Source: an uncultured Bacteroidales bacterium (GTDB taxonomy: Bacteria; Bacteroidota; Bacteroidia; Bacteroidales; Bacteroidaceae). From it: DNA of 64,000 nt. The DNA lies in assembly GCA_937916465.1 (NCBI GenBank), contig CALFTK010000021.1:35297-99296 (forward strand). Reading direction: 5' to 3'. A program made the translations under genes and the position numbers. Shown here one piece after another: positions 7,229 through 25,682 of the stretch. Below the pieces are notes generated by a model that did no database searches, was not told the origin of the DNA, and saw nothing but the letters and a program-made list of their open reading frames with translations. Positions within the stretch are counted from its first letter, which is position 1. The number at the start of each line of letters is the position of its first letter.

Positions 7229-9568
7229 ATGCAGAAAAATTTAGTGATAGTTGAGTCTCCGGCCAAAGCCAAGACAATAGAGAAATTCCTTGGAAAAGAC
7301 TTTAAAGTTTTATCAAGCTATGGCCATATATGTGACCTTAAAAAGAAGGATCTAAGTATTGATACAGATACATTTGAACCTATATACGAGATACCTCAAG
7401 ATAAAAAAAGAGTTGTTACGGAACTGAAAGAGGCTGCAGCCAAGGCAGAAATGGTTTGGTTGGCTTCCGATGAGGACCGCGAAGGAGAGGCTATCAGCTG
7501 GCATCTGTATGATACATTGGAACTAAAGCCGGAAAAGACAAAACGTATTGTATTTCACGAAATTACTAAGAATGCCATATTGCAGGCAATAGAAAACCCG
7601 CGCGATATAGACAGAAATCTGGTGCTTGCCCAGCAGGCCAGACGTGTTCTGGATAGAATAGTTGGTTTTAAACTTTCACCTGTTTTGTGGCGTAAAATCA
7701 AACCGTCGCTGTCAGCAGGACGTGTTCAGTCTGTGGCTGTTCGTCTTATTGTAGAGCGTGAACGTGAAATTAAAGCGTTCAAACCGGAAGTTTCGTATAA
7801 AGTGGTTGCAATATTCAGCTATCAGACTGCAGAAGGAAATGTGGTGAATGTCAAAGCGGATTACAGTGAGCGTTTCAAATCGAAAGAAGAGGCTACCCGT
7901 TTTCTTGAAAGTTGTGTAGGCAAAGAATTTTCGGTGAAGGATATCTCTGTGAAACCTCTTGTTAAAACGCCTGCTCCTCCGTTCACTACTTCTACTCTTC
8001 AACAGGAAGCTGCCAGAAAATATGGCTTTACAGTAATACAAACCATGATGTTGGCACAGCGCCTGTATGAATCGGGACGTATTACATATATGCGTACAGA
8101 CTCAGTAAACCTGTCATCGCTCTGTATCAATTCAAGCCGCAAGGTTATAGAAGATACTATGGGTGCTGAATATGTAAAGAGCAGGCAGTATAACGTTAAA
8201 TCCAAAGGTGCGCAGGAGGCTCACGAAGCAATTCGTCCAACATATATGGAGAATGCAACAATAGATGCTCCTGCACCCGAAAGAAGAATATATGAACTAA
8301 TCTGGAAACGTACCATCGCATCGCAGATGGCAGATGCTCAGATTGAGAAGACTGTTGTAGCCGTTCAGGCCGATGGCTTGCAAGGCGAATTTGTAATTAC
8401 CGGCGAAATAACAAAGTTTGATGGTTTTCTTAAGGTTTATCGTGAATCGCGTGATGATGATCAGGAGACAATCAACGAAAGTGTTTCGGGAATGCCGGCA
8501 TTTGCCGTAGGTAATAAACTGCAAGTTGTTAATATTGATGCAGTAGAACGCCTTACACAGCGTCCGCAGAGATACAACGAAGCTGCTCTTGTTCATAAAA
8601 TGGAAGAATTAGGTATAGGTCGTCCATCTACATACGCCCCAACAATCAGCACAATTCAGCAGCGCGAATATGTGTTGCGTGAAGATATAGCAGGTAAGAT
8701 GATCAATTATAATCTTATCAGGCTACAAGACGATACGATAACAGAACAGACTCTTTCAGAGAATCACGGTTCTGAAAAGTCAAAACTTGTTCCAACAGAT
8801 ATAGGACTGGTTGTAAACGATTTCCTATTGGATAGTTTCCCTGATATTATGAGTTATAACTTTACTGCAATGGTAGAAAAAGAATTTGACGGTATTGCTG
8901 ACGGTGAGAAGCCTTGGGATGCAGTAATTCGTGAATTCTATGCCGATTTCGCACCTGCAGTAGATAGTGCTATGACACAGAAAAACGAATATAAGGTGGG
9001 TGAACGCGTCTTAGGTACAGATCCTGTATCGGGCAAACCTGTAACTGTCAAGATAGGCAGATATGGTCCTATTGTTCAGATAGGCAGTGCCGAAGATGAA
9101 GAGAAACCTCGCTTTGCGCAGATGAAGAAGGGACAGACTCTTGAAAATATAACCTTTGAACAGGCAATGGAACTCTTTAAGTTGCCTCGCACTCTTGGCG
9201 AATATAACGGGCAATCAGTTATAATTGGTACAGGAAAATTTGGCCCATACATACGTTATGGCAGTTCATACGTATCGATACCTAAAACTCTCGATCCGCA
9301 TACTATTACTTTTGAACAGGTGTTGGAACTGATAAAAGAAAAGGAACAGACCGAAGCAAATAAACTGATAAAGAAGTTTGAAGGCGAATTGGATGTAGAG
9401 ATTCTGAACGGTCGATATGGTCCATATATTGCAAGTGGTGGCAAAAACTATAAGATTCCAAAGAACCTGAATCCTGCTGACTTGACAATAGAAGAGTGCA
9501 AGAATATTATCAGTGAATTAGAATCCAAGGGAACTGCTACAAAACGTCGTTCAACCAAACGTAAATAA
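7229..9568 (+). CDS. topA: DNA topoisomerase I
   Basis: 779 aa with the TOPRIM start LVIVESPAKAKTIEKFLG, a DEDREGE motif, and a C-terminal repeated zinc-ribbon-like/KR-rich tail. Confidence 0.95.
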   Translation: MQKNLVIVESPAKAKTIEKFLGKDFKVLSSYGHICDLKKKDLSIDTDTFEPIYEIPQDKKRVVTELKEAAAKAEMVWLASDEDREGEAISWHLYDTLELKPEKTKRIVFHEITKNAILQAIENPRDIDRNLVLAQQARRVLDRIVGFKLSPVLWRKIKPSLSAGRVQSVAVRLIVEREREIKAFKPEVSYKVVAIFSYQTAEGNVVNVKADYSERFKSKEEATRFLESCVGKEFSVKDISVKPLVKTPAPPFTTSTLQQEAARKYGFTVIQTMMLAQRLYESGRITYMRTDSVNLSSLCINSSRKVIEDTMGAEYVKSRQYNVKSKGAQEAHEAIRPTYMENATIDAPAPERRIYELIWKRTIASQMADAQIEKTVVAVQADGLQGEFVITGEITKFDGFLKVYRESRDDDQETINESVSGMPAFAVGNKLQVVNIDAVERLTQRPQRYNEAALVHKMEELGIGRPSTYAPTISTIQQREYVLREDIAGKMINYNLIRLQDDTITEQTLSENHGSEKSKLVPTDIGLVVNDFLLDSFPDIMSYNFTAMVEKEFDGIADGEKPWDAVIREFYADFAPAVDSAMTQKNEYKVGERVLGTDPVSGKPVTVKIGRYGPIVQIGSAEDEEKPRFAQMKKGQTLENITFEQAMELFKLPRTLGEYNGQSVIIGTGKFGPYIRYGSSYVSIPKTLDPHTITFEQVLELIKEKEQTEANKLIKKFEGELDVEILNGRYGPYIASGGKNYKIPKNLNPADLTIEECKNIISELESKGTATKRRSTKRK

Positions 9569-12771: not shown

Positions 12772-12845
12772 GGGCTTTTAGCTCAGTCGGTTAGAGCAAC
12801 AGACTCATAATCTGGAGGTCCTAGGTTCAAGTCCTAGATGGCCCA
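12772..12845 (+). tRNA. tRNA with CAT anticodon (tRNA-Met; a lysidine-modified tRNA-Ile2 cannot be excluded)
   Basis: Hand-folded cloverleaf. Acceptor GGGCTTT/ATGGCCC has one T-T mismatch and one G-T pair. D stem is GCTC/GAGC, the anticodon loop is CTCATAA, the T arm is CTAGG-TTCAAGT-CCTAG, and the discriminator is A. No CCA is encoded. Confidence 0.85.
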
Positions 12846-12846
12846 C
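12827..12846. repeat. 20-bp direct repeat, copy 1 (3' end of the tRNA, tcaagtcctagatggcccac)
   Basis: Identical to 12982-13001 by direct reading. Confidence 0.95.
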
Positions 12847-12850
12847 TTAA

Positions 12851-12880
12851 GAAAACTGCTACGGCAGTTTTCTTTTTTTT
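12851..12880 (+). terminator. Rho-independent terminator after the tRNA
   Basis: Stem gaaaactgc/gcagttttc with a 4-nt loop, followed by a run of 8 T. Confidence 0.6.
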
Positions 12881-12901
12881 ATGTTCTAGGACTTTCACCT
12901 A

Positions 12902-12983
12902 CGGTTATCTCCTTCGTTTTACGTTTGCACCGGCTTTGCCGACAGCAAACACGAAGTCGATGGGTCTCTTCGAGACAAATCTC
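12902..12983. repeat. 82-bp direct repeat, copy 1 (left island boundary)
   Basis: Reads identically to 25843-25924 (cggttatctccttcgttttacgtttgcaccggctttgccgacagcaaacacgaagtcgatgggtctcttcgagacaaatctc). Confidence 0.95.
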
Positions 12984-13001
12984 AAGTCCTAGATGGCCCA
13001 C
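12982..13001. repeat. 20-bp direct repeat, copy 2 (orphan tRNA 3' end; attR-like scar)
   Basis: Identical to 12827-12846 and followed by its own terminator hairpin. Confidence 0.9.
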
Positions 13002-13011
13002 ATTAAAAATC

Positions 13012-13044
13012 AAGCAGTTACGAATTTTCGTAACTGCTTTTTTC
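13012..13044 (+). terminator. Rho-independent terminator following the orphan tRNA 3' fragment
   Basis: 13-bp stem aagcagttacgaa/ttcgtaactgctt with a 2-nt loop, followed by a T-run. Confidence 0.6.
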
Positions 13045-13333
13045 TTTATCTGCGTAAACGATGCGTAAACAAACTGTTTGAGTTAGGCTATGAAATGACA
13101 TGATACATATAAAGAATCAACAACTATCATATTATTGTCTCCTGTAAAGTAAGTGAAGAAAAAACGTCTGTGTAGTCATTTAATGGAATTCTATCTTACA
13201 TATAAATCATTTATATGGTTGACACTATGAATATTTCATATTGTTTCGAGGAATAAAGTGAAATAAATTCACTAAAACTCTATTTTGCTGCTTCTTTTTC
13301 TTGAAAAATTAATAAGTATAGCGAATAATTTAC

Positions 13334-13353: not shown

Positions 13354-13578
13354 GTGAATAACATGGAAGTAGTAAGAGACTTAAATCGCTTGAAAGTAAT
13401 TTTGGCTGAGAAAAAAAAGACAAACAAATGGTTGGCTGAACAATTGGGGTGTGCGCCAACCACCGTCTCTAAATGGTGCACAAATTCCTCTCAGCCTTCC
13501 TTGGAAATGATTGAGAGAATCGCTATTCTGCTAGACATAGATTATACGGAACTTATTAGAATAGACAGGAAATCATGA
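13354..13578 (+). CDS. XRE-family helix-turn-helix transcriptional regulator (C-protein-like controller?)
   Basis: About 71-74 aa with the HTH core KTNKWLAEQLGCAPTTVSKWCTNSSQPSLEMIERIAILL. The real start is probably the ATG at 13363. The stop overlaps the next gene's start (ATGA). Confidence 0.85.
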   Translation: MNNMEVVRDLNRLKVILAEKKKTNKWLAEQLGCAPTTVSKWCTNSSQPSLEMIERIAILLDIDYTELIRIDRKS

Positions 13579-14426
13579 GGGATAAAAACACTTTTACCAT
13601 TCATACAGAGCTTCTTGGTGGTAAACTCAATGGGGCAAGAAATATATATATGGGTGCGAATTCCACCTGTCATCTTTATGTAATTCCTCGTGAAGAGATT
13701 ACATTAGCCAATGCAATCAATGACATTTCTGGTCAGCCAGCCTTCTATATTTTGCTTAGTTCCCTTGACGCAAAGAGGAAACAGGCTTATATTGGTCAAA
13801 CGACAGATTTCGCAAATAGAAAAAATGATCATGTGCAAAAGAAAGATTTCTGGAACATAGCCCTTATCTTTATTTCAGATAATCATAAAATTTATGGTGA
13901 CGATGTGAAATATTTGGAGTATCTAGGTATTGAAGCAGCACAAAATGCTGGCTCATTCGAGTTGTTGAATGGTATCAATCCTAAAAGACCAAACATTGCT
14001 CCCTATCGTATAAATGATATGGAAGTATTCTTCCGTGACATTCAGTTGTTATGTAATTTTTATGGCTGTAATATTTTTGAAACTATCACGTATAAAGAAA
14101 CAAAAGAGCATTTATATTTTGTCGAATCCATAGATCGACCTGCACAAGGTCGTGGATTCTACGATGAGAAACATGGTAAATTCATTTTGTTAGAAGGAAG
14201 TATCATTGCAAATGAGGTTGTGAAAAGTTTTAAGTCCATTTCATTTCGTAATCAGTTTATTAAAGAACATTGTAAAAAAGATAAGGGACAAATAGTACTC
14301 CTTAATGATATATCTTTTGACACTCCTAGTGGTGCTTCTAGTCTTGTTTTAGGTCGTCCAAGTAATGGGTGGAGCGATTGGAAGGATGCAGAAGGAAAGA
14401 AGCTTAGTGATATAATTAAAAGATAA
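13575..14426 (+). CDS. GIY-YIG nuclease-like protein with a C-terminal DUF4357-like domain
   Basis: 283 aa. FYILL...(12 aa)...YIGQTTDFANRKNDH...W...YLEYLGIE...N matches the GIY-YIG / Arg / Glu / Asn pattern. The C-terminal TPSGASSLVLGRPSNGWSDWK resembles the DUF4357 signature. Confidence 0.7.
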   Translation: MRDKNTFTIHTELLGGKLNGARNIYMGANSTCHLYVIPREEITLANAINDISGQPAFYILLSSLDAKRKQAYIGQTTDFANRKNDHVQKKDFWNIALIFISDNHKIYGDDVKYLEYLGIEAAQNAGSFELLNGINPKRPNIAPYRINDMEVFFRDIQLLCNFYGCNIFETITYKETKEHLYFVESIDRPAQGRGFYDEKHGKFILLEGSIIANEVVKSFKSISFRNQFIKEHCKKDKGQIVLLNDISFDTPSGASSLVLGRPSNGWSDWKDAEGKKLSDIIKR

Positions 14427-14436
14427 AAGTATTAAT

Positions 14437-15720
14437 ATGACAGCAATTGTAGGTACTATAAATCGAAGAGGTGTTGCATTTGCAGCAGATAGTGCAGCAA
14501 CACATACTGTATCTTCTAAGCATAAGATTACAAATCATGCTAATAAGATTTTTGAATTATCAAGGCGACATCCTGTAGGTGTTTGTATTTGTGGGAATCT
14601 AGATTTTTTAGGAATGCCTTGGGAGGATATTTTCAAGTTGTTTAGAAAAGAACTGGGAAAAACTTCATGCGCAAATCTCAAAGAATATCCTACCATGTTT
14701 TTTGAATTTGTGAAAACTCATATAATGTCTCATTTGTTAGAAGATCAAACAACAAATCTTAGAGTCATAGTAAATGGTTTCTGGCAAGAAATTATAGATA
14801 TTTCAAGCAAAGAATTGAAAGAGGCTAGTAAAGATACATCGGAAGAGAATTTGTTCTGTAAGATACAAGAGAAACTGATTTATTTCGAAAATATATATTC
14901 TCCTATTAATATCAATAAGTGTGCAGATTTTGAAGATTATACAATAGATGAATTTACAAGTTATGCAACGGAAATCATTGAAGATGTGCTAAAAGAACCT
15001 TTGAACTCTCATTTGTGTCCTAAAGATTTCTTGAAGCAGTTTACCCAAGCTTTATATAACATCATTGTCTCCACTGTTCATGTTTATCTTGTTAACTCTG
15101 AAATTATTTTCTGGGGATATGGTGAAGAAGATTTGTTTCCTTCATATTTCTCTTTTATCATAAGTTCTGCTTTTGATGGGAGAATAAAATTTACCAATAA
15201 GAGTGCATATGTTGTATCAAACATCAATAATGCGTGCGTTGAGCCATTTGCACAGACAGATGTTGCCAACACAGTGGTAAGAGGCATAGATGACGATCTT
15301 CGCAAAAAGTTTTATGACAGCTATAAAGCATCAATAACCGTTTTTAGAGATGAAATCATATCTCAATTAGACTCTGCCGGAGCGCCTGAAGTCTTAAAAG
15401 ATGCATTGCTAAAAATTGACCTGGAAAATTATACAAACTTATATGTTCAAGGTATGGATCTGTATATTCAGGACAATTATATTGCGAAATTAGTTAACAC
15501 AGTGTCATACTTGAGTAAGGAAGATTTGGCGGATATGGCCGAAAGTCTTGTTCGAATGACATATTTAAAACGGCGCATAACATCAGAAGAAGAAAGTGTG
15601 GGAGGACCTGTTGATGTAGCTGTGATAACTAAAGGAGATGGTTTCGTTTGGTTAAAAAGAAAGCATTATTTTTCTGCAGAGTTAAATCCACATTATTTTG
15701 AACGCACCAATATAGATTAG
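14437..15720 (+). CDS. Proteasome-beta/HslV-like Ntn-hydrolase homologue with large helical insertions (uncharacterised)
   Basis: 427 aa. MTAIVGTINRRGVAFAADSAAT places Thr directly after Met and Asp 16 residues later, as Thr1/Asp17 in proteasome beta subunits. NKIFEL supplies a Lys33-like lysine, followed by VGVCICGNLD. The C-terminal SVGGPVDVAVITKGDGFVWL resembles the SGG...kdG end of beta subunits. Confidence 0.55.
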   Translation: MTAIVGTINRRGVAFAADSAATHTVSSKHKITNHANKIFELSRRHPVGVCICGNLDFLGMPWEDIFKLFRKELGKTSCANLKEYPTMFFEFVKTHIMSHLLEDQTTNLRVIVNGFWQEIIDISSKELKEASKDTSEENLFCKIQEKLIYFENIYSPININKCADFEDYTIDEFTSYATEIIEDVLKEPLNSHLCPKDFLKQFTQALYNIIVSTVHVYLVNSEIIFWGYGEEDLFPSYFSFIISSAFDGRIKFTNKSAYVVSNINNACVEPFAQTDVANTVVRGIDDDLRKKFYDSYKASITVFRDEIISQLDSAGAPEVLKDALLKIDLENYTNLYVQGMDLYIQDNYIAKLVNTVSYLSKEDLADMAESLVRMTYLKRRITSEEESVGGPVDVAVITKGDGFVWLKRKHYFSAELNPHYFERTNID

Positions 15721-15919: not shown

Positions 15920-20070
<4,151 letters not shown>

Positions 20071-20074
20071 AGGT

Positions 20075-21229
20075 ATGGAAAACAATATAGTCATATCGAT
20101 GGAGCAACAGTTTGGCGAAGTTGTTGATATTATTCTTCAACATAAAAGCCGTGCATCTAAAGTCGTAAATGATGAATTGCTTCTTACGGCTTGGCATGTA
20201 GGTGGCTATGTTTCAGCCAAACTAAAAAGCGAAGAATGGGGAAGCAAAGTTGTATCTCAGTTATCAGAATATATACGTTCTCAGCATCCCGATATAAAAG
20301 GATATGGACGTAGCAGTATCTACAATATGGTTATGTTCTATGAAGAATACTCATCAGAAACTTTTGCTTTAACTGTAGAACGATATCTGAATTCCGAATT
20401 CGTCCAGCCAACAATTGGACAAATTGAAAGGTCATCAATTGTATCAAGCGATGAAGCAAATATAATAGTGCAGGCAGCATCCGCACAAATTGTCCAACCA
20501 TTGGCTGGACAAATGCCTAAAATATTGGAATTGACAACGTTTACAAATCACATTGAGATTCTTTGTCGATGCAAAAGCAATGAAGAACGATTGTTCTATA
20601 TTCTTTATGCTAACAAAGAACGTTTGGTTAAACGAGAACTTCAACGTTGCATTTCCAATCAGACTTATTCTACGCTGTTGGGTAGCAAAAATAACATGTC
20701 AAAAGGTTTGCTTGAAACATATCCCAATGCACCTGTAATGTTCAAGGACACGTTGTTTGTTGACTTTCTTAATTTACCGAAGAAGCATAGTGAAACAAAG
20801 CTAAAAAACAGTTTGGTGGAAAACATGAAGCAGTTTATCCTTGAATTGGGAAAGGACTTCATCTCTATGGACCAAGAATACAGACTTCAAGTTGGTGCAT
20901 CGACATATAAAGCGGACTTGCTGTTTTATCATCGTGGTTTGCAAGCTCTGGTAGCAGTAGAACTTAAAAAGACAAAGTTTCATCCAAGAGACCTCGGACA
21001 ATTGGAGTTCTATTTGGAGGCCCTTGACAGAGACGTGAAGCGTTCCAATGAGAATCCATCTATTGGAATCATTCTTTGTCCTGAAGCCGATCGTGTGGTA
21101 GTGGAATATGCCATGAGTCGTAGTATGAGCCCTACAATGATAGCTGAATATAAGCGTATCCTCATTCCGCAGGAGCGCTTGCAACAGCAACTTGATGAAT
21201 TTTGTAATGTATTTCTAACTAAAAAATAA
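20075..21229 (+). CDS. DUF1016 / YhcG-family PD-(D/E)xK nuclease-like protein
   Basis: 384 aa. The N-terminal region (SKVVNDELLLTAWHVGGYV...WGSKVVSQLSEYI) and the C-terminal core (DLLFYHRGLQALVAVELKKTKF) are typical of YhcG. Confidence 0.7.
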   Translation: MENNIVISMEQQFGEVVDIILQHKSRASKVVNDELLLTAWHVGGYVSAKLKSEEWGSKVVSQLSEYIRSQHPDIKGYGRSSIYNMVMFYEEYSSETFALTVERYLNSEFVQPTIGQIERSSIVSSDEANIIVQAASAQIVQPLAGQMPKILELTTFTNHIEILCRCKSNEERLFYILYANKERLVKRELQRCISNQTYSTLLGSKNNMSKGLLETYPNAPVMFKDTLFVDFLNLPKKHSETKLKNSLVENMKQFILELGKDFISMDQEYRLQVGASTYKADLLFYHRGLQALVAVELKKTKFHPRDLGQLEFYLEALDRDVKRSNENPSIGIILCPEADRVVVEYAMSRSMSPTMIAEYKRILIPQERLQQQLDEFCNVFLTKK

Positions 21230-21234
21230 CTGTC

Positions 21235-22683
21235 ATGGATACCAAGAAACTACGTCAAAAGATACTCGACCTTGCTATTCATGGCAAGCTTGTTTCCCAA
21301 GATCCCAACGATGAACCTGCATCGGTGTTACTTGAACGTATCCGTGCAGAGAAGGAACGACTGGTAAAAGAAGGGAAAATAAAGAAGAGCAAAGCCTCAA
21401 AAACTACCGATACGCCCCATTATGAGAACGTGCCGTTTGAGGTACCGAGTTCGTGGGAGTGGTGCAATCTGGAGGATATATGTATTTTTCTATCACGAGG
21501 GAAATCACCGAAATATTCAGAAGATGATAGAACCTACCCAGTGTTCGCTCAAAAATGTAATTTGAAGGATGGTGGTATATCATTAGAACAAGCAAGATTT
21601 TTAGATCCTTCAACAGTCACTAAATGGAACGACATTTACAAATTACAGACAGGTGACATTCTTGTTAATTCTACTGGTACAGGAACTGTCGGTAGAACAA
21701 GATTGTTTGATGTCACTTGTTTGGGAAGCTATCCTTTTGTGGTTCCAGACTCTCACGTCTCTGTTATAAGAACTTCAAACCAAATAAATTCAAAGTTTAT
21801 TTTTGCCTATATATCATCTAAATTTATCCAACAATATCTAGAAGAGAATCTTGCAGGAAGTACAAACCAGAAGGAATTATACATAGGAGTCTTATCAACT
21901 CTTCGTATTCCAATCCCTTCTTTTACCGAACAAGAACGTATTGTCGCAGAAATAGAGAAGTGGTTTGCTCTTATAGATCAGATTGAACAAAAAAAAGGCG
22001 ATTTACAAGCTACCATCAAACAGACAAGAAGTAAGATTCTCGACCTTGCCATCCACGGCAAACTCGTACCACAAGACCCCAACGATGAACCTGCTTCGGA
22101 ATTGCTCAAACGTATAAAACCTAAAGCGGAAATCACTTGTGATAACGGGCAGTATGGGAAGTTACCAGAGGGATGGTGTTTGGTAACTGGTACAACTCTA
22201 TTCAAACAGATGAAATCCTCTAAACCAAAAGGAGAACTTTTTAAGTATATTGACATTGACTCTATAGATAATAAGTCTAATATTGTGTCCTCTATCAAAG
22301 AAATACCCACTGTAAAAGCCCCAAGTAGAGCAAGCAGATATACAGAAAAAGGAGATGTGGTTTTTTCAATGGTTAGACCATATTTAAGAAATATTGCCCG
22401 AATAACGGAAAACGATTGCATTGCATCAACAGGCTTTTATATATGTAGTCCTTACAATTATATGCATTCTATGTTCTGCTATTATTTAATGCTTTCGGAT
22501 TATGTCGTTGATGGTCTTAACTCCTTTATGAAAGGTGATAATTCACCATCCATAACGAAAAGAGATGTTGATAATTGGTTATATCCTTTACCACCGATGA
22601 ATGAACAACATCGTATTGTCGTTAAAATTGAGGAAATCTTTACCCTCCTTGATAGGATTGAATTGTCACTCAGAATGTGTTGA
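21235..22683 (+). CDS. hsdS: Type I R-M specificity subunit, expressed locus (CR1-TRD A-CR2-TRD B-CR3)
   Basis: 482 aa. The conserved segment KILDLAIHGKLV.QDPNDEPAS occurs at the N-terminus and again in the centre. There are two variable TRDs, and the gene is the last member of the operon. Confidence 0.9.
   Translation: MDTKKLRQKILDLAIHGKLVSQDPNDEPASVLLERIRAEKERLVKEGKIKKSKASKTTDTPHYENVPFEVPSSWEWCNLEDICIFLSRGKSPKYSEDDRTYPVFAQKCNLKDGGISLEQARFLDPSTVTKWNDIYKLQTGDILVNSTGTGTVGRTRLFDVTCLGSYPFVVPDSHVSVIRTSNQINSKFIFAYISSKFIQQYLEENLAGSTNQKELYIGVLSTLRIPIPSFTEQERIVAEIEKWFALIDQIEQKKGDLQATIKQTRSKILDLAIHGKLVPQDPNDEPASELLKRIKPKAEITCDNGQYGKLPEGWCLVTGTTLFKQMKSSKPKGELFKYIDIDSIDNKSNIVSSIKEIPTVKAPSRASRYTEKGDVVFSMVRPYLRNIARITENDCIASTGFYICSPYNYMHSMFCYYLMLSDYVVDGLNSFMKGDNSPSITKRDVDNWLYPLPPMNEQHRIVVKIEEIFTLLDRIELSLRMC
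21409..21462. repeat. Shufflon inverted repeat IR1, copy a (end of CR1 in hsdS)
   Basis: The reverse complement of 25629-25682 matches at 49 of 54 positions by my count, with a 20-bp perfect core gatacgccccattatgagaa. Confidence 0.8.
22129..22151. repeat. Shufflon inverted repeat IR2 core, copy a (end of CR2 in hsdS)
   Basis: 23-bp perfect match (gaaatcacttgtgataacgggca) to the reverse complement of 24973-24995. It sits within a roughly 200-bp imperfect inverted similarity. Confidence 0.8.
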
Positions 22684-23106: not shown

Positions 23107-23910
23107 TCACCAATTCACCACCTTATCTACAATCTTTTGCTGTTCGCTTGCAGTTCGACGTAGATAGATACGAGTCGTTTCTATGCTTTCATGACCCATC
23201 AGGTCAGCAAGTAGGGCAAGGTCATTGAAACGGTCGAGGAAGTTCTTAGCAAAACGATGACGGAATGAATGGGGATAAACAACTTCCCTGTTCATTCCGT
23301 ACTTGTCTGCAAAATGCTTTAACTGTTGAGCTATGCCACGTGTAGTAATGCGTTCGCCAAATCGATTGAGGAAGATGTAACCAGAAGAGCGTCCTTGTTC
23401 TTTTAGCCATTTAGTGGCTTCTAATCTCAGGTTCTTCGGAATATACAAACGACGTATCTTTCCGCCCTTGCTATAAAGGTCAAGATGCCCAATCAGCACG
23501 TGTTCTGCTTTGATATGAAGCAGTTCACTGACACGTGCTCCTGTAGCTGCCATAAACCACACTACAAAATACCATTCATCATAACCATCTGCTTTGAGTC
23601 GTGCTTTGAGAAACTTGTAATCGGCATCACTGATTACATTTTCCAAGAAGTTCTTCTGTTGGACTTTTACGAATTTCACTTTCAGTTTCTCTTGCTTTGT
23701 AAATTCAAGATACTTGTTGATGCCTTGCAAACGTAGGTTTACGGTCTGTGGTTTGAAGTTCTCTACTAAATACCCTTTGTATGCCAAAAGGTTCTTTTTG
23801 TTGACTTCCCCATAATGACTGAGAAAATACTGTACCGTCCATACATAAGAAGTAACGGTGTTCTTTGCCAAATTAGTCTTGGCCAGATTGTCTTTGAATT
23901 TTGTTACCAT
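23107..23910 (-). CDS. Tyrosine site-specific recombinase (shufflon invertase)
   Basis: 267 aa with catalytic-signature residues ATGARVSEL (Arg), HSFRHRFA (His-x-x-Arg) and GHESIETTRIYL (His...Tyr). It lies between hsdS and the silent cassettes. Confidence 0.85.
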   Translation of the reverse strand: MVTKFKDNLAKTNLAKNTVTSYVWTVQYFLSHYGEVNKKNLLAYKGYLVENFKPQTVNLRLQGINKYLEFTKQEKLKVKFVKVQQKNFLENVISDADYKFLKARLKADGYDEWYFVVWFMAATGARVSELLHIKAEHVLIGHLDLYSKGGKIRRLYIPKNLRLEATKWLKEQGRSSGYIFLNRFGERITTRGIAQQLKHFADKYGMNREVVYPHSFRHRFAKNFLDRFNDLALLADLMGHESIETTRIYLRRTASEQQKIVDKVVNW

Positions 23911-23959: not shown

Positions 23960-23981
23960 CGGGCATTATCAGAACTTGCCT
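23960..23981. repeat. Shufflon inverted repeat IR3, copy a
   Basis: 22-bp perfect match (cgggcattatcagaacttgcct) to the reverse complement of 24957-24978. Confidence 0.8.
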
Positions 23982-24446
23982 AGTTCGTGGTGTGTTGCGC
24001 CCATGGGAATACTGTGTTCTTTAAGCGACGGGGAGAAGCAAACAGGTGTAGAAAGAATAAATCTTGATGTCAAATATTTGAGGGGTGAGCGTGATGCCAA
24101 AACTCTAGCAGTAGGTAAGTTCACACCAGCAAATTCACTTCTGATATTGGTTGACGGAGAAAATTCTGGAGAAGTTTTCAGGACTCCAATTGAGGGTTAT
24201 CAAGGCAGTACTTTCAAGCAACTGTCTATAAAAGATGATATGAATACAGACTATGTCCTGCAAGTTATAAACTTACATCGTAAGACACTGAGAGAAAATA
24301 AGGTAGGCTCTGCAATTCCGCATCTGAACAAAAAACTGTTTAAAGAAATAGAAGTACCAATTCCTCCTTACAAAGAACAACAAAGGATAGTCGAAACCAT
24401 AAATCATGCATTTAAGCATCTTGATACAATAATGGAGAGCCTATAA
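23976..24446 (+). other. Silent hsdS half-cassette (TRD E plus CR3); no start codon or promoter of its own
   Basis: It begins in mid-motif (..GHYQNLPSSW..) at a TTG and ends with the hsdS C-terminal consensus PPYKEQQRIVETINHAFKHLDTIMESL. Confidence 0.8.
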
Positions 24447-24460
24447 ACTCTCCATTATTG
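24427..24460. repeat. Perfect 13-bp inverted repeat at the tail-to-tail junction of the two silent cassettes
   Basis: caataatggagag (24427-24439) and ctctccattattg (24448-24460) are separated by 8 nt. Both arms encode ..IMESL, and the two stop codons overlap. Confidence 0.85.
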
Positions 24461-24956
24461 CGTCTAATTGAGCAAATGTCTTTCTAACTGCACTTACGAT
24501 TCTTTCTTGTTCTCCCAATGGAGGCAAAAGAAAATCAAAATTGCCTATTACGTTAGCACTGATATTAGGTTGTGCACCACCATAAGCCAGTTTTAGTATT
24601 TCTTCCACTTTTGACCGCATAAAACAATCCCTGTACGATGCTAGCAATATGGAATCATCTAAGATACGTATGTTCGCAACTCGTTGGTTCAAATATACTG
24701 TTTCTTCATATGAATAAACTCCCATTTTACCGGTTGTAGCTCCTGACATTGCGATCAACAAATCGCCCTTGGTTACAATAAATCTGTCATCTACTTTTTC
24801 CTGAATATAAACACACTCTGTTAAATCGATGGAATTGTTCACTATATTAGATATGCGTATTAACGGTACACCTTCTGTCATGTAATCATTGCTGCTAAAG
24901 GCAAAACCATTTTCAATTTTACACAAATCGGAAAGCTTACATACTCCCCATCCTTC

Positions 24957-24978
24957 AGGCAAGTTCTGATAATGCCCG
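24957..24978. repeat. Shufflon inverted repeat IR3, copy b
   Basis: Reverse complement of 23960-23981. Confidence 0.8.
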
Positions 24979-24995
24979 TTATCACAAGTGATTTC
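24973..24995. repeat. Shufflon inverted repeat IR2 core, copy b
   Basis: Reverse complement of 22129-22151. Confidence 0.8.
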
Positions 24996-25628
24996 GGCAT
25001 TTGGATTGATACGTTTGAGCAACTCTGATGCAGGCTCGTCACTTGGGTCTTGCGCTACAAGTTTGCCTTGTATAGCAAGGTCAAGAATTTTAGATTTGGT
25101 TTGTTTGATCGCTGTTAGTAAATCTGTCTTTTCTCGTTCTATTTGCTCTATCAAAGCAAACCATTTCTCTATTTCTGCTACAATTCGGATTTGCTCTGCA
25201 AGTGGAGGAAGAGGAAATAATAACTTTGCAAAATTTCCTTTGTTTAATATTGGAAGAGTAGTTGCTGAGGCATTAAATTTTATTTCATCCTGAAAATAAT
25301 CTGATGTGCACACATCATATATGAATTCCGCTAAAATGAAATCATGAGGAATTATTGCGTTTATTTGTTGATTACAACTACCTTCAATTGTTATTAGCCC
25401 TGTTTTTCCAATAGTTGCACCAATACAAGTAATTAATACTGATTTTACAGGTAGTTTTCGAGCTTGTTCAAATCCTAATAATGAAAGATGATCACTTGCT
25501 CTTTTCACGCATTTTCCTTGTTCTAAATCTGTTGGTTTATAAAATGGTATATCACCGCCATAGTATTCAGGAATATCTTTAGAAGGGGTACTACCTGTAA
25601 CGATTTCACCAATATTCCCGACCTCCGT

Positions 25629-25682
25629 CCACTCCCACGAACTAGGAATTTCAAACGGCACATTCTCATAATGGGGCGTATC
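25629..25682. repeat. Shufflon inverted repeat IR1, copy b
   Basis: Reverse complement of 21409-21462 with 5 mismatches. Confidence 0.8.

Follow-up and report, generated by a model that had tools for sequence, protein, structure and literature searches.

The bacterial proteasome homologues HslV, Anbu and BPH are regarded as proteostasis machines, and in 2021 Fuchs, Alva and Lupas described 22 further proteasome-homologue families (PMC8665760), one group of which, PMI (so named for proteasome homologues that carry multiple insertions), includes two subgroups, PMI-3 and PMI-4, with a long insertion at H1/H2 and another between H3 and H4. We report here on a gene for a 427-residue proteasome-beta-like N-terminal nucleophile (Ntn) threonine hydrolase of PMI-type architecture, together with a small gene directly behind it, in a 64,000-nucleotide stretch of DNA from an uncultured Bacteroidales bacterium (GenBank assembly GCA_937916465.1, contig CALFTK010000021.1, positions 35,297 to 99,296; called the window below). 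From the genes and their context we propose, with a confidence that is about even, that the two form an anti-phage (abortive-infection or toxin-antitoxin-like) protease module.

The 2021 catalogue (PMC8665760) gives none of its new homologues a propeptide; in it the long H1/H2 insertion is common to PHI and also to PMI-3 and PMI-4, the H3/H4 insertion is found in PMI-2 to PMI-6, and an S3/S4 insertion marks PMI-5, PMI-6 or connectase. PMI-4 is the largest PMI group and is known from Proteobacteria, Firmicutes, Bacteroidetes and phages; PMI-3 was not reported in Bacteroidetes, Firmicutes or phages. In the models of the same authors, insertions at H1/H2 and H3/H4 would hinder classical stacked-ring assembly, and they found no genomic context or co-occurrence that hinted at function (PMC8665760). 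Connectase, another proteasome homologue with helical insertions, is a monomeric and highly specific ligase (PMC7980362; PMC8665760).

Fold and active site of the 427-residue protein

A preliminary description of the window, made from its letters, had named the open reading frame (ORF) at 14437–15720 as a hydrolase of the proteasome-beta/HslV Ntn type. The coordinates, the length and all of the motifs quoted there are present, and the fold, the profile alignment and the conserved triad given below support the assignment. The AlphaFold2 model of the protein has a predicted local distance difference test score (pLDDT) of 83.5 and a predicted template modelling score (pTM) of 0.78. When this model was compared with the PDB by Foldseek, a check that the preliminary description had proposed, the proteasome fold was recovered: the best 50 of 239 matches are all 20S proteasome subunits, mostly beta (probability 0.97–1.00, target-normalised template modelling score (TMt) 0.37–0.58), and their root-mean-square deviations are high because the alignments are forced across ~200 inserted residues. 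The best viral structural match, in BFVD, is a phage protein named “Proteasome beta” (TMt 0.65). Matching a family profile to PDB sequences gave as its best hit the Thermoplasma 20S beta subunit (E=0.0022) in two collinear segments, placing Thr2, Asp18 and Lys37 on Thr1, Glu17 and Lys33 of that subunit and VGGPvDVAvItkgDG on its residues 169–185. The fold and catalytic layout are thus those of a proteasome-type Ntn hydrolase.

Conservation of the active site was followed in an alignment of 52 family members that reaches down to 26% identity, covers three phyla as well as phages and plasmids, and takes in copies from Streptococcus, Enterococcus, Providencia, Stenotrophomonas, Pantoea and Porphyromonas elements. 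The window protein begins with MTAIVGTINRRGVAFAADSAAT, where Thr is residue 2 and Asp18 stands 16 residues later, the Met-Thr N-terminus named in the preliminary description. All 52 sequences start M(T/S)A, with Thr at position 2 in 50 and Ser in 2; Asp18 and Lys37 are each found in 52/52, so that the suggested check on conservation of the triad came out positive throughout, with either Thr or Ser as the first residue. Position 48 is Gly in 45 members and Ala in the other 7. The lysine of HANKIFEL, which had been judged to lie about where Lys33 does, is Lys37 and falls on Lys33 with the 3-residue gap that had been counted, and the VGVCICGNLD strand contains Gly48 at the place of the oxyanion Gly47. 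At the C-terminus EESVGGPVDVAVITKGDGFVW aligns, as anticipated, with beta-subunit residues 166–187. The likeness of the mid-protein block EIIFWGYGEEDLFPSYFSFI to a proteasome strand pair stands in part: the block falls on predicted strands E221–227 and E236–246 and holds the invariant G227 and G229 and the near-invariant P235, so the resemblance is consistent with the fold at the level of strands and not of a residue-by-residue alignment.

Since the protein has no propeptide and every family sequence starts M(T/S)A, removal of Met1 alone would expose the nucleophile, as the preliminary description had supposed. Methionine aminopeptidase accepts Thr at P1' and E. coli HslV likewise starts MTT, and for these reasons Met removal would probably suffice to activate the 427-residue protein, whose predicted activity is that of a peptidase.

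The family is large (3,792 homologues of the 427-residue protein; 5,631 representatives of 50%-identity clusters), and public records label its proteins “hypothetical protein” throughout. Neither a phmmer search of the PDB with the single 427-residue sequence nor an NCBIfam scan of it returned any match, and in PHROGs it matches over its full length phrog_5990, an entry with no function assigned. Phage copies were found by tblastn against annotated phages; a pattern-based scan of viral contigs yielded 146 pattern matches and zero confirmed relatives.

A conserved core with two hypervariable insertions

The strands of the core lie within residues 4–53, 221–271 and 392–409 (Table 1 gives the blocks). 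In the N-terminal sheet they are predicted at residues 4–8, 13–18, 21–25, 28–32, 37–40 and 47–53, and in the middle sheet at 221–227, 236–246, 249–259 and 267–271; in the latter G283 is invariant besides the two glycines already named, and A272 and Q273 are near-invariant. An H1-like helix (62–73, with a conserved PWE..IK.YR) and an H2-like helix (198–215) flank the first insertion, which consists of four long helices at 83–99, 101–129, 136–153 and 170–189 with pLDDT above 90. The helices of the second insertion are at 286–314, 318–325 and 329–356, and it is followed by an H4-like helix (361–383, KEDLADMAESL), an E386-S-V-G-G-P-x-D loop and a GDG hairpin. After this C-terminal hairpin comes W405/KRKHYF, a family-specific signature. 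The C-terminal core, with E386, V388, V394, G402 and W405 invariant, is the most conserved part of the family (majority-residue fraction 0.69–0.82).

Over the core as a whole the majority-residue fraction is 0.67–0.82, as against 0.28 in each insertion, and the insertions also vary in length from 106 to 149 residues (the first) and from 50 to 90 (the second). The preliminary description had put the two at roughly 150 and 100 residues. They are indeed helical (helices over residues 62–211, where beta has ~45 residues, and 274–382), and those figures are the full distances between conserved blocks; subtraction of the native H1/H2 and H3/H4 helices leaves net insertions of ~125 and ~77 residues. 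Their hypervariability would accord with the further suggestion that they could gate the active site or direct it to other targets.

Comparison with described proteasome homologues

PMI architecture was already catalogued in 2021, so the claim that this protein opens an undescribed branch beside HslV, Anbu, BPH and connectase is not supported. It has in common with PMI-4 the Thr1/Asp17/Lys33/Gly47 core, the lack of a propeptide and both insertion sites, and its family has the same spread over Bacteroidetes, Firmicutes, Proteobacteria and phages; an S3/S4 insertion is absent, there being merely a 3-residue gap relative to beta. A PMI-3/PMI-4 architecture fits best, with PMI-4 the best fit by distribution. 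Judged by architecture and distribution, the protein probably belongs to PMI-4 (representative HDY66466.1). It differs from the catalogue entry in having a conserved small downstream gene and a consistent defence-island or moron context, where the catalogue reports neither an informative context nor a co-occurring gene.

The 20S beta subunits (PF00227, MEROPS T1) are the best structural match and share the Thr/Asp(Glu)/Lys triad as well as collinearity at the N-terminal catalytic strands and at the C-terminal GG..D.AvItk.G hairpin. In contrast to them, the 427-residue protein has ~200 extra residues in its two helical insertions and no propeptide, and its family is mobile and sporadic, with no alpha subunit or AAA+ partner nearby. 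HslV (ClpQ) is bacterial, has Thr right after the initiator Met (MTTIVSV in E. coli) and shows the common N-terminal pattern MT..V....G.....D..T; it is however an insertion-free protein of 176 residues whose gene adjoins that of its AAA+ partner, hslU. No hslU-like or other AAA+ unfoldase gene was present in any homologue neighbourhood examined, and, given also the 427-residue length and the two insertions, we rejected identity with HslV. Connectase, an archaeal protein ligase, resembles the protein in being a proteasome homologue with a helical insertion, and as a specific, non-compartmentalised enzyme it is an earlier case of this fold serving a chemistry other than degradation, but its two-helix insertion is between S3 and S4, it lacks H1/H2 (PMC8665760), and it is restricted to methanogens where the 427-residue family is found in bacteria and phages. 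It was not among the best 50 of the 239 Foldseek matches, and identity with connectase was rejected on insertion sites and on the bacterial and phage hosts.

A small partner gene follows the large gene

Two nucleotides past the stop codon of the large gene is a second ORF, of 58 codons, that the preliminary description had missed. An ATG-started ORF of 51–68 residues, starting within −40 to +30 nt of the large-gene stop, is present in 18 of 18 distinct Bacteroidales loci and in 2.2% of composition-matched shuffles. The two genes are co-oriented, with a gap of −20 to +12 nt in the Bacteroidales loci, and the two loci that have no partner, L014 and L023, have a disrupted large gene. The upstream neighbour varies, and in most loci a gap of 137–279 nt separates it from the large gene, which implies that the conserved unit is the protease gene plus the small ORF. 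This layout, with adjacent or overlapping co-oriented genes of which one is small and fast-evolving, is like that of type II toxin-antitoxin systems.

The Bacteroidales partners start with M-x-T-I-(Y/F)-(S/T)-(E/N) and share an invariant Trp, which in many of them is C-terminal or close to it, with a conserved Ile two residues earlier; in the numbering of the window partner Trp52 is invariant, and M1, T3, I4 and I50 are near-invariant. Partners are 21–43% identical where the proteases are 44–67% identical, and so evolve about twice as fast. Structure prediction leaves the N-terminal ~30 residues of the partner disordered and gives one confident helix at 32–57.

Beyond Bacteroidales, small genes stand in the same position. 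Annotated small ORFs occur in a Providencia phage (58 residues), a Porphyromonas phage (55 residues) and an E. faecium plasmid (56 residues, overlapping the large gene), and ORFs of 34–67 codons that the records leave unannotated follow the large gene in a Stenotrophomonas phage, a Pantoea plasmid, a Ruegeria megaplasmid, a Rhizobium plasmid and E. coli prophages. Homology of the small proteins across phyla was rejected for want of convincing similarity, and conservation of position alone is claimed; exceptions in the alignment are a MITI start that Enterococcus shares, and a separate enterobacterial type. Unannotated small ORFs were also noted 3' of E. coli and Pantoea homologues (L039 9264–9413, L040 9207–9311 and L030 7323–7430), and those of L040 and L030, with a common MS(I/V)KQ.L.NAYK..(V/A).QKFG-like start, may be a distinct enterobacterial partner family overlooked by annotation. 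The L039 cassette spans 7957–9413 and consists of the genes for WP_000123148.1 and a small product of 49 residues; the large protein of L040 is WP_231531568.1. A 478-residue Mesorhizobium annotation at first looked like a large protein fused naturally to a small one. This was discarded, as the last 50 residues are low in complexity and stem from read-through, in a region where a different frame holds a better ORF.

Some copies are disrupted. Locus L014 has a shortened large gene followed by an ORF that by eye resembles a transposase, in L023 the first 130 residues of the large protein remain, and the 360-residue protein P0030 joins an XRE helix-turn-helix (HTH) N-terminus to residues 157–422 of the 427-residue protein at 100% identity, without Thr1, and is a deletion or an assembly chimera. 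Such copies fit a costly accessory gene.

The cassette lies in defence islands and mobile elements

The setting in a defence island that had been claimed for the window is confirmed by PDC-S14, Type I restriction-modification (R-M) and PDC-S02 genes there (Table 1), and all nine further annotated homologue loci, which include two pairs of near-identical islands and thus represent ~7 distinct arrangements, are defence islands or mobile elements. The companions of the homologue are AbiEi/AbiEii plus a Type I R-M system with Abi_C; OLD-TOPRIM plus UvrD, in two versions; SIR2; DpnII R-M plus TIR, in two related islands; and HNH plus methyltransferase-HIT, Schlafen/AlbA_2 and NACHT, in two others that are likewise related. 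The 123 ORFs that flank the gene in 11 named genomes were pooled for a PADLOC scan at E≤1e-10 and matched 90 families; 37 control ORFs, taken from the window outside its island, matched 1. In one Bacteroidales lineage (L031 9524–10300 and L036 9487–10263) a TIR_2-domain gene begins ~20–60 nt past the partner gene on the same strand and might be co-transcribed with the cassette.

Outside chromosomal islands the gene is carried by phages, satellites and plasmids, and on such elements it takes up moron positions. In Streptococcus satellites and prophages the cassette gene is at the extreme end of the element, in a Providencia phage it is between Q/Dam and the holin gene, and in Stenotrophomonas phages it is beside the holin gene. 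Of 5,426 complete E. coli genomes, 22 were positive in a DNA search whose reach is confined to the conserved 3' core. One E. coli copy, in a lambdoid prophage, has Q on one side and the lysis genes on the other and runs antisense to the late operon; another prophage copy is directly downstream of a repressor-like HTH gene on the same strand, a location that implies expression in the lysogen and that in lambda is occupied by rexAB. Plasmid carriers include E. faecium, Pantoea and Rhizobium plasmids and a Ruegeria megaplasmid.

On two rhizobial plasmids (Mesorhizobium, L042 2733–7437; Rhizobium gallicum, L043 5001–10515) the homologue lies ~1–1.5 kb from an operon for a multiubiquitin domain protein and a ThiF-family E1 (plus DUF6527), the gene order differing between the two; such neighbours were not seen in the Bacteroidales loci. 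This co-location could reflect either a defence-island neighbourhood or a functional tie of the proteasome homologue to ubiquitin-like conjugation.

The neighbourhood in the window

By a 99% identity to locus L008, the window belongs to a metagenome-assembled genome of an Alloprevotella sp. The features of the window island are collected in Table 1. Its GC content is 32–35% over 13–16 kb and 38–44% in the flanks, and the repeat of the end of tRNA-Met at its edge suggests a recurrent integration hotspot. A 76-codon ORF at 12838–13068 overlaps two strong terminator-like hairpins (12849–12874 and 13012–13039) and the tRNA 3' repeat, and is probably not a gene.

The GIY-YIG/DUF4357 gene ends 10 nt before the large gene. 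An ORF of the same size (283 codons) is directly upstream of the large gene only in the closest relatives, L009–L011, and elsewhere the upstream ORF is unrelated; a functional link was therefore rejected, and we treat the GIY-YIG/DUF4357 gene as a separate single-gene candidate system outside the conserved cassette. The three PDC-S14 matches among the pooled neighbour ORFs, whose carrier ORFs the pooled scan does not resolve, are consistent with this gene. Downstream, the Type I R-M locus includes an 83-nt internal repeat in hsdS (21259–21341 and 22033–22115), and with its recombinase and extra hsdS genes is probably a phase-variable (shufflon-type) specificity system. A sigma-70 promoter scan, which does not cover Bacteroidota promoters, found 29 promoters where 31 were expected.

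Table 1. Features of the cassette and of its surroundings, in positions of the window.
Feature	Position	Strand	Basis or remark
tRNA-Met, island boundary	12772–12846	+	3' end repeated 155 bp downstream
Repeat of last ~20 nt of tRNA-Met	12982–13009		att-like scar at low-GC island edge
XRE-type HTH gene, 74 codons, GTG start	13354–13578	+	overlaps next gene by 4 nt
GIY-YIG/DUF4357 gene, PADLOC candidate single-gene system PDC-S14	13575–14426	+	E 4e-59
Proteasome-beta-like Ntn threonine hydrolase gene, PMI-type architecture, propeptide-less	14437..15720	+	ORF, 427 residues, ATG start
N-terminal catalytic sheet, residues 1–61 (Thr2, Asp18, Lys37, Gly48)	14437..14619	+	aligned to beta 1–46
Helical insertion 1, residues ~74–197, H1/H2 region, hypervariable	14656..15027	+	AlphaFold2 model and alignment
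Middle core sheet, residues 216–283, GYG..FP hairpin and PFAQxD motif at H3 start	15082..15285	+	strands and conservation
Helical insertion 2, residues ~284–360, between H3 and H4, hypervariable	15286..15516	+	AlphaFold2 model and alignment
H4-like helix and C-terminal core, residues 361–412	15517..15672	+	aligned to beta 166–187
Conserved small partner gene, 58 residues	15723..15899	+	ORF, 2 nt past large-gene stop
hsdR, Type I R-M	15920–18631
hsdM, Type I R-M	18637–20070
YhcG/PDC-S02 nuclease gene	20075–21229		inserted between hsdM and hsdS
hsdS, Type I R-M	21235–22683
Short tyrosine recombinase	23107–23910	-
Extra hsdS gene	23976–24446	+
Extra hsdS gene	24441–25661	-

Discussion

A two-gene cassette that is carried about in defence islands, at prophage moron sites, and by phage satellites and plasmids is what leads us to propose an anti-phage module. 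We read its large product as a cytoplasmic hydrolase with an N-terminal threonine, within the proteasome-beta/HslV superfamily, from which methionine aminopeptidase would take off Met1, leaving a free Thr to act as nucleophile and general base with the assistance of Asp18, Lys37 and the Gly48 oxyanion position. The two hypervariable helical insertions on the conserved core could be a specificity or sensor cap for substrates or for a phage trigger, and they would also hinder stacked-ring assembly according to the models of Fuchs et al. (PMC8665760). The protease would be the effector and the small protein would be the regulator cognate to it: in the likeliest case a pseudo-substrate inhibitor or a labile antitoxin, or alternatively a substrate or adaptor. 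The partner could reach into the substrate cleft with its disordered tail and bind the cap through its helix. Infection would then release or redirect proteolysis onto host or phage proteins. We infer the roles of the insertions and of the small protein, as well as the defence function, from these features, and the defence reading overall stands at, or a shade under, an even call. That this is a widespread and hitherto unrecognised two-gene anti-phage system, in which a proteasome-family Thr protease effector bears a target-sensing cap and is restrained by the small partner, we put forward more tentatively, at slightly less than an even chance.

Proteases have precedents in anti-phage and toxin-antitoxin modules, in Lit, in proteases associated with CBASS (cyclic-oligonucleotide-based anti-phage signalling systems) or CRISPR, and in Lon-dependent type II toxin-antitoxin systems, and the present cassette is like these in that a compact mobile operon, situated in defence islands, encodes an effector or regulator that would act by proteolysis. 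We know of no such module with a proteasome-family N-terminal-threonine protease, and none was present in the literature searched either.

Several results weigh against parts of this proposal. With regard to the fold, the Pfam check suggested in the preliminary description did touch PF00227 (Proteasome), at residues 2–53, at 12.1 bits and E=0.16, which is below the gathering threshold of 22.4; such a score is expected for remote homologues of the kind in Fuchs et al., 30 of the 52 family members, scanned one by one, give a sub-threshold match to PF00227 (best E 1.7e-4), and any other Pfam family is matched by two of them at most. Set against a single E. coli HslV sequence in hhalign, the family profile aligned over residues 1–26 only (E 0.003, probability 10%), in the right register, and at 26 residues the match is too weak to be kept as independent proof. 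The second shell of the active site (Ser129, Asp166 and Ser169 in 20S beta) appears to depart from that of 20S beta: A272-Q273-x-D275 occupies the place where GSG(S/T) begins H3, and in the hidden Markov model alignment, whose register here is approximate, E385/E386 fall near Asp166 and S387/V388 near Ala168/Ser169, with Val388 apparently on Ser169. With AQxD in place of GSG(S/T) the fine chemistry may differ, and may go beyond simple proteolysis. With regard to function, the 427-residue protein matches no known or candidate defence model in PADLOC 2.0, and the literature searched contained no publication or experiment tying the family, or any proteasome or Ntn homologue, to phage defence, and no later paper on PMI proteins. 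The partners show no sequence similarity across phyla that alignment can detect beyond Bacteroidales, so the small proteins may be non-homologous. Finally, guilt by association can mislead, as mobile islands carry addiction modules and other cargo too.

One rival explanation is a plain addiction or toxin-antitoxin module, in which a protease toxin and a small antitoxin stabilise mobile elements and have no role in phage defence. A two-gene cassette with a small and fast-evolving second gene, carriage by plasmids, prophages and satellites, and the existence of disrupted copies are all as such a module would have them, but most copies stand among bona fide defence genes and not among replication or partition genes, and morons that protect the lysogen typically occupy the two kinds of prophage site seen here, next to the repressor gene or with Q and the lysis genes on either side. 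We consider this explanation unlikely, and it overlaps with a defence function in that many toxin-antitoxin modules double as defence systems.

Another possibility, which we regard as distinctly unlikely, is that the protein is a connectase-like specific ligase or processing enzyme that modifies or matures its small partner or another defined target and degrades no protein. Connectase, a monomeric specific ligase with helical insertions (PMC7980362; PMC8665760), is the precedent, the models of Fuchs et al. (PMC8665760) have ring stacking impeded by insertions at H1/H2 and H3/H4, and the conserved N-terminal motif and invariant Trp of the partner could serve as recognition elements. However, the insertion sites are unlike those of connectase (S3/S4, and no H1/H2; PMC8665760), the structure search did not place connectase among its best 50 matches, and nothing points to a conserved target.

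The full-length match to phrog_5990, and the holin and endolysin genes that adjoin the gene in phages of Providencia, Stenotrophomonas and Streptococcus, would suit a gene that benefits the phage, as a counter-defence, host-takeover or lysis-timing protease, with the chromosomal copies as prophage remnants. Against this, most Bacteroidales loci are islands of R-M, Abi, TIR or OLD genes without phage structural or lysis genes in their vicinity, one E. coli prophage copy is antisense to the late operon and another is placed for expression in the lysogen, and satellites, which have no lysis genes, carry the gene too; we think this explanation improbable. A housekeeping self-compartmentalising quality-control protease akin to HslV, Anbu or BPH, although of the same superfamily and with the same catalytic triad, is very improbable, since a sporadic and strain-specific distribution (the 22 of 5,426 E. 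coli genomes) in a mobile, low-GC, defence-island context, the lack of an AAA+ or Anbu-operon partner in the neighbourhoods examined, and large insertions that would hinder ring stacking (PMC8665760) argue against it.

For the proteasome homologues, the anti-phage proposal gives a testable hypothesis to one large family among the 22 of the 2021 catalogue, which have no known function, and adds to that work the partner gene, the defence-island and moron context, and the contrast of a near-invariant core with hypervariable insertions, a conserved-effector and variable-cap architecture that is typical of immune proteins. Members are found in gut Bacteroidales, E. faecium, streptococcal satellites and the prophages of enterotoxigenic E. 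coli, and the divergent homologues in E. coli prophages make the defence hypothesis testable in a tractable host. If it is true, this would be the first function for PMI proteasome homologues, the first bacterial defence role for the fold and a new protease class in bacterial immunity; it would add to the ways in which prokaryotes and eukaryotes are alike in using proteasome-type enzymes against viruses, with a possible tie to the neighbouring ubiquitin-like conjugation operons on rhizobial plasmids.

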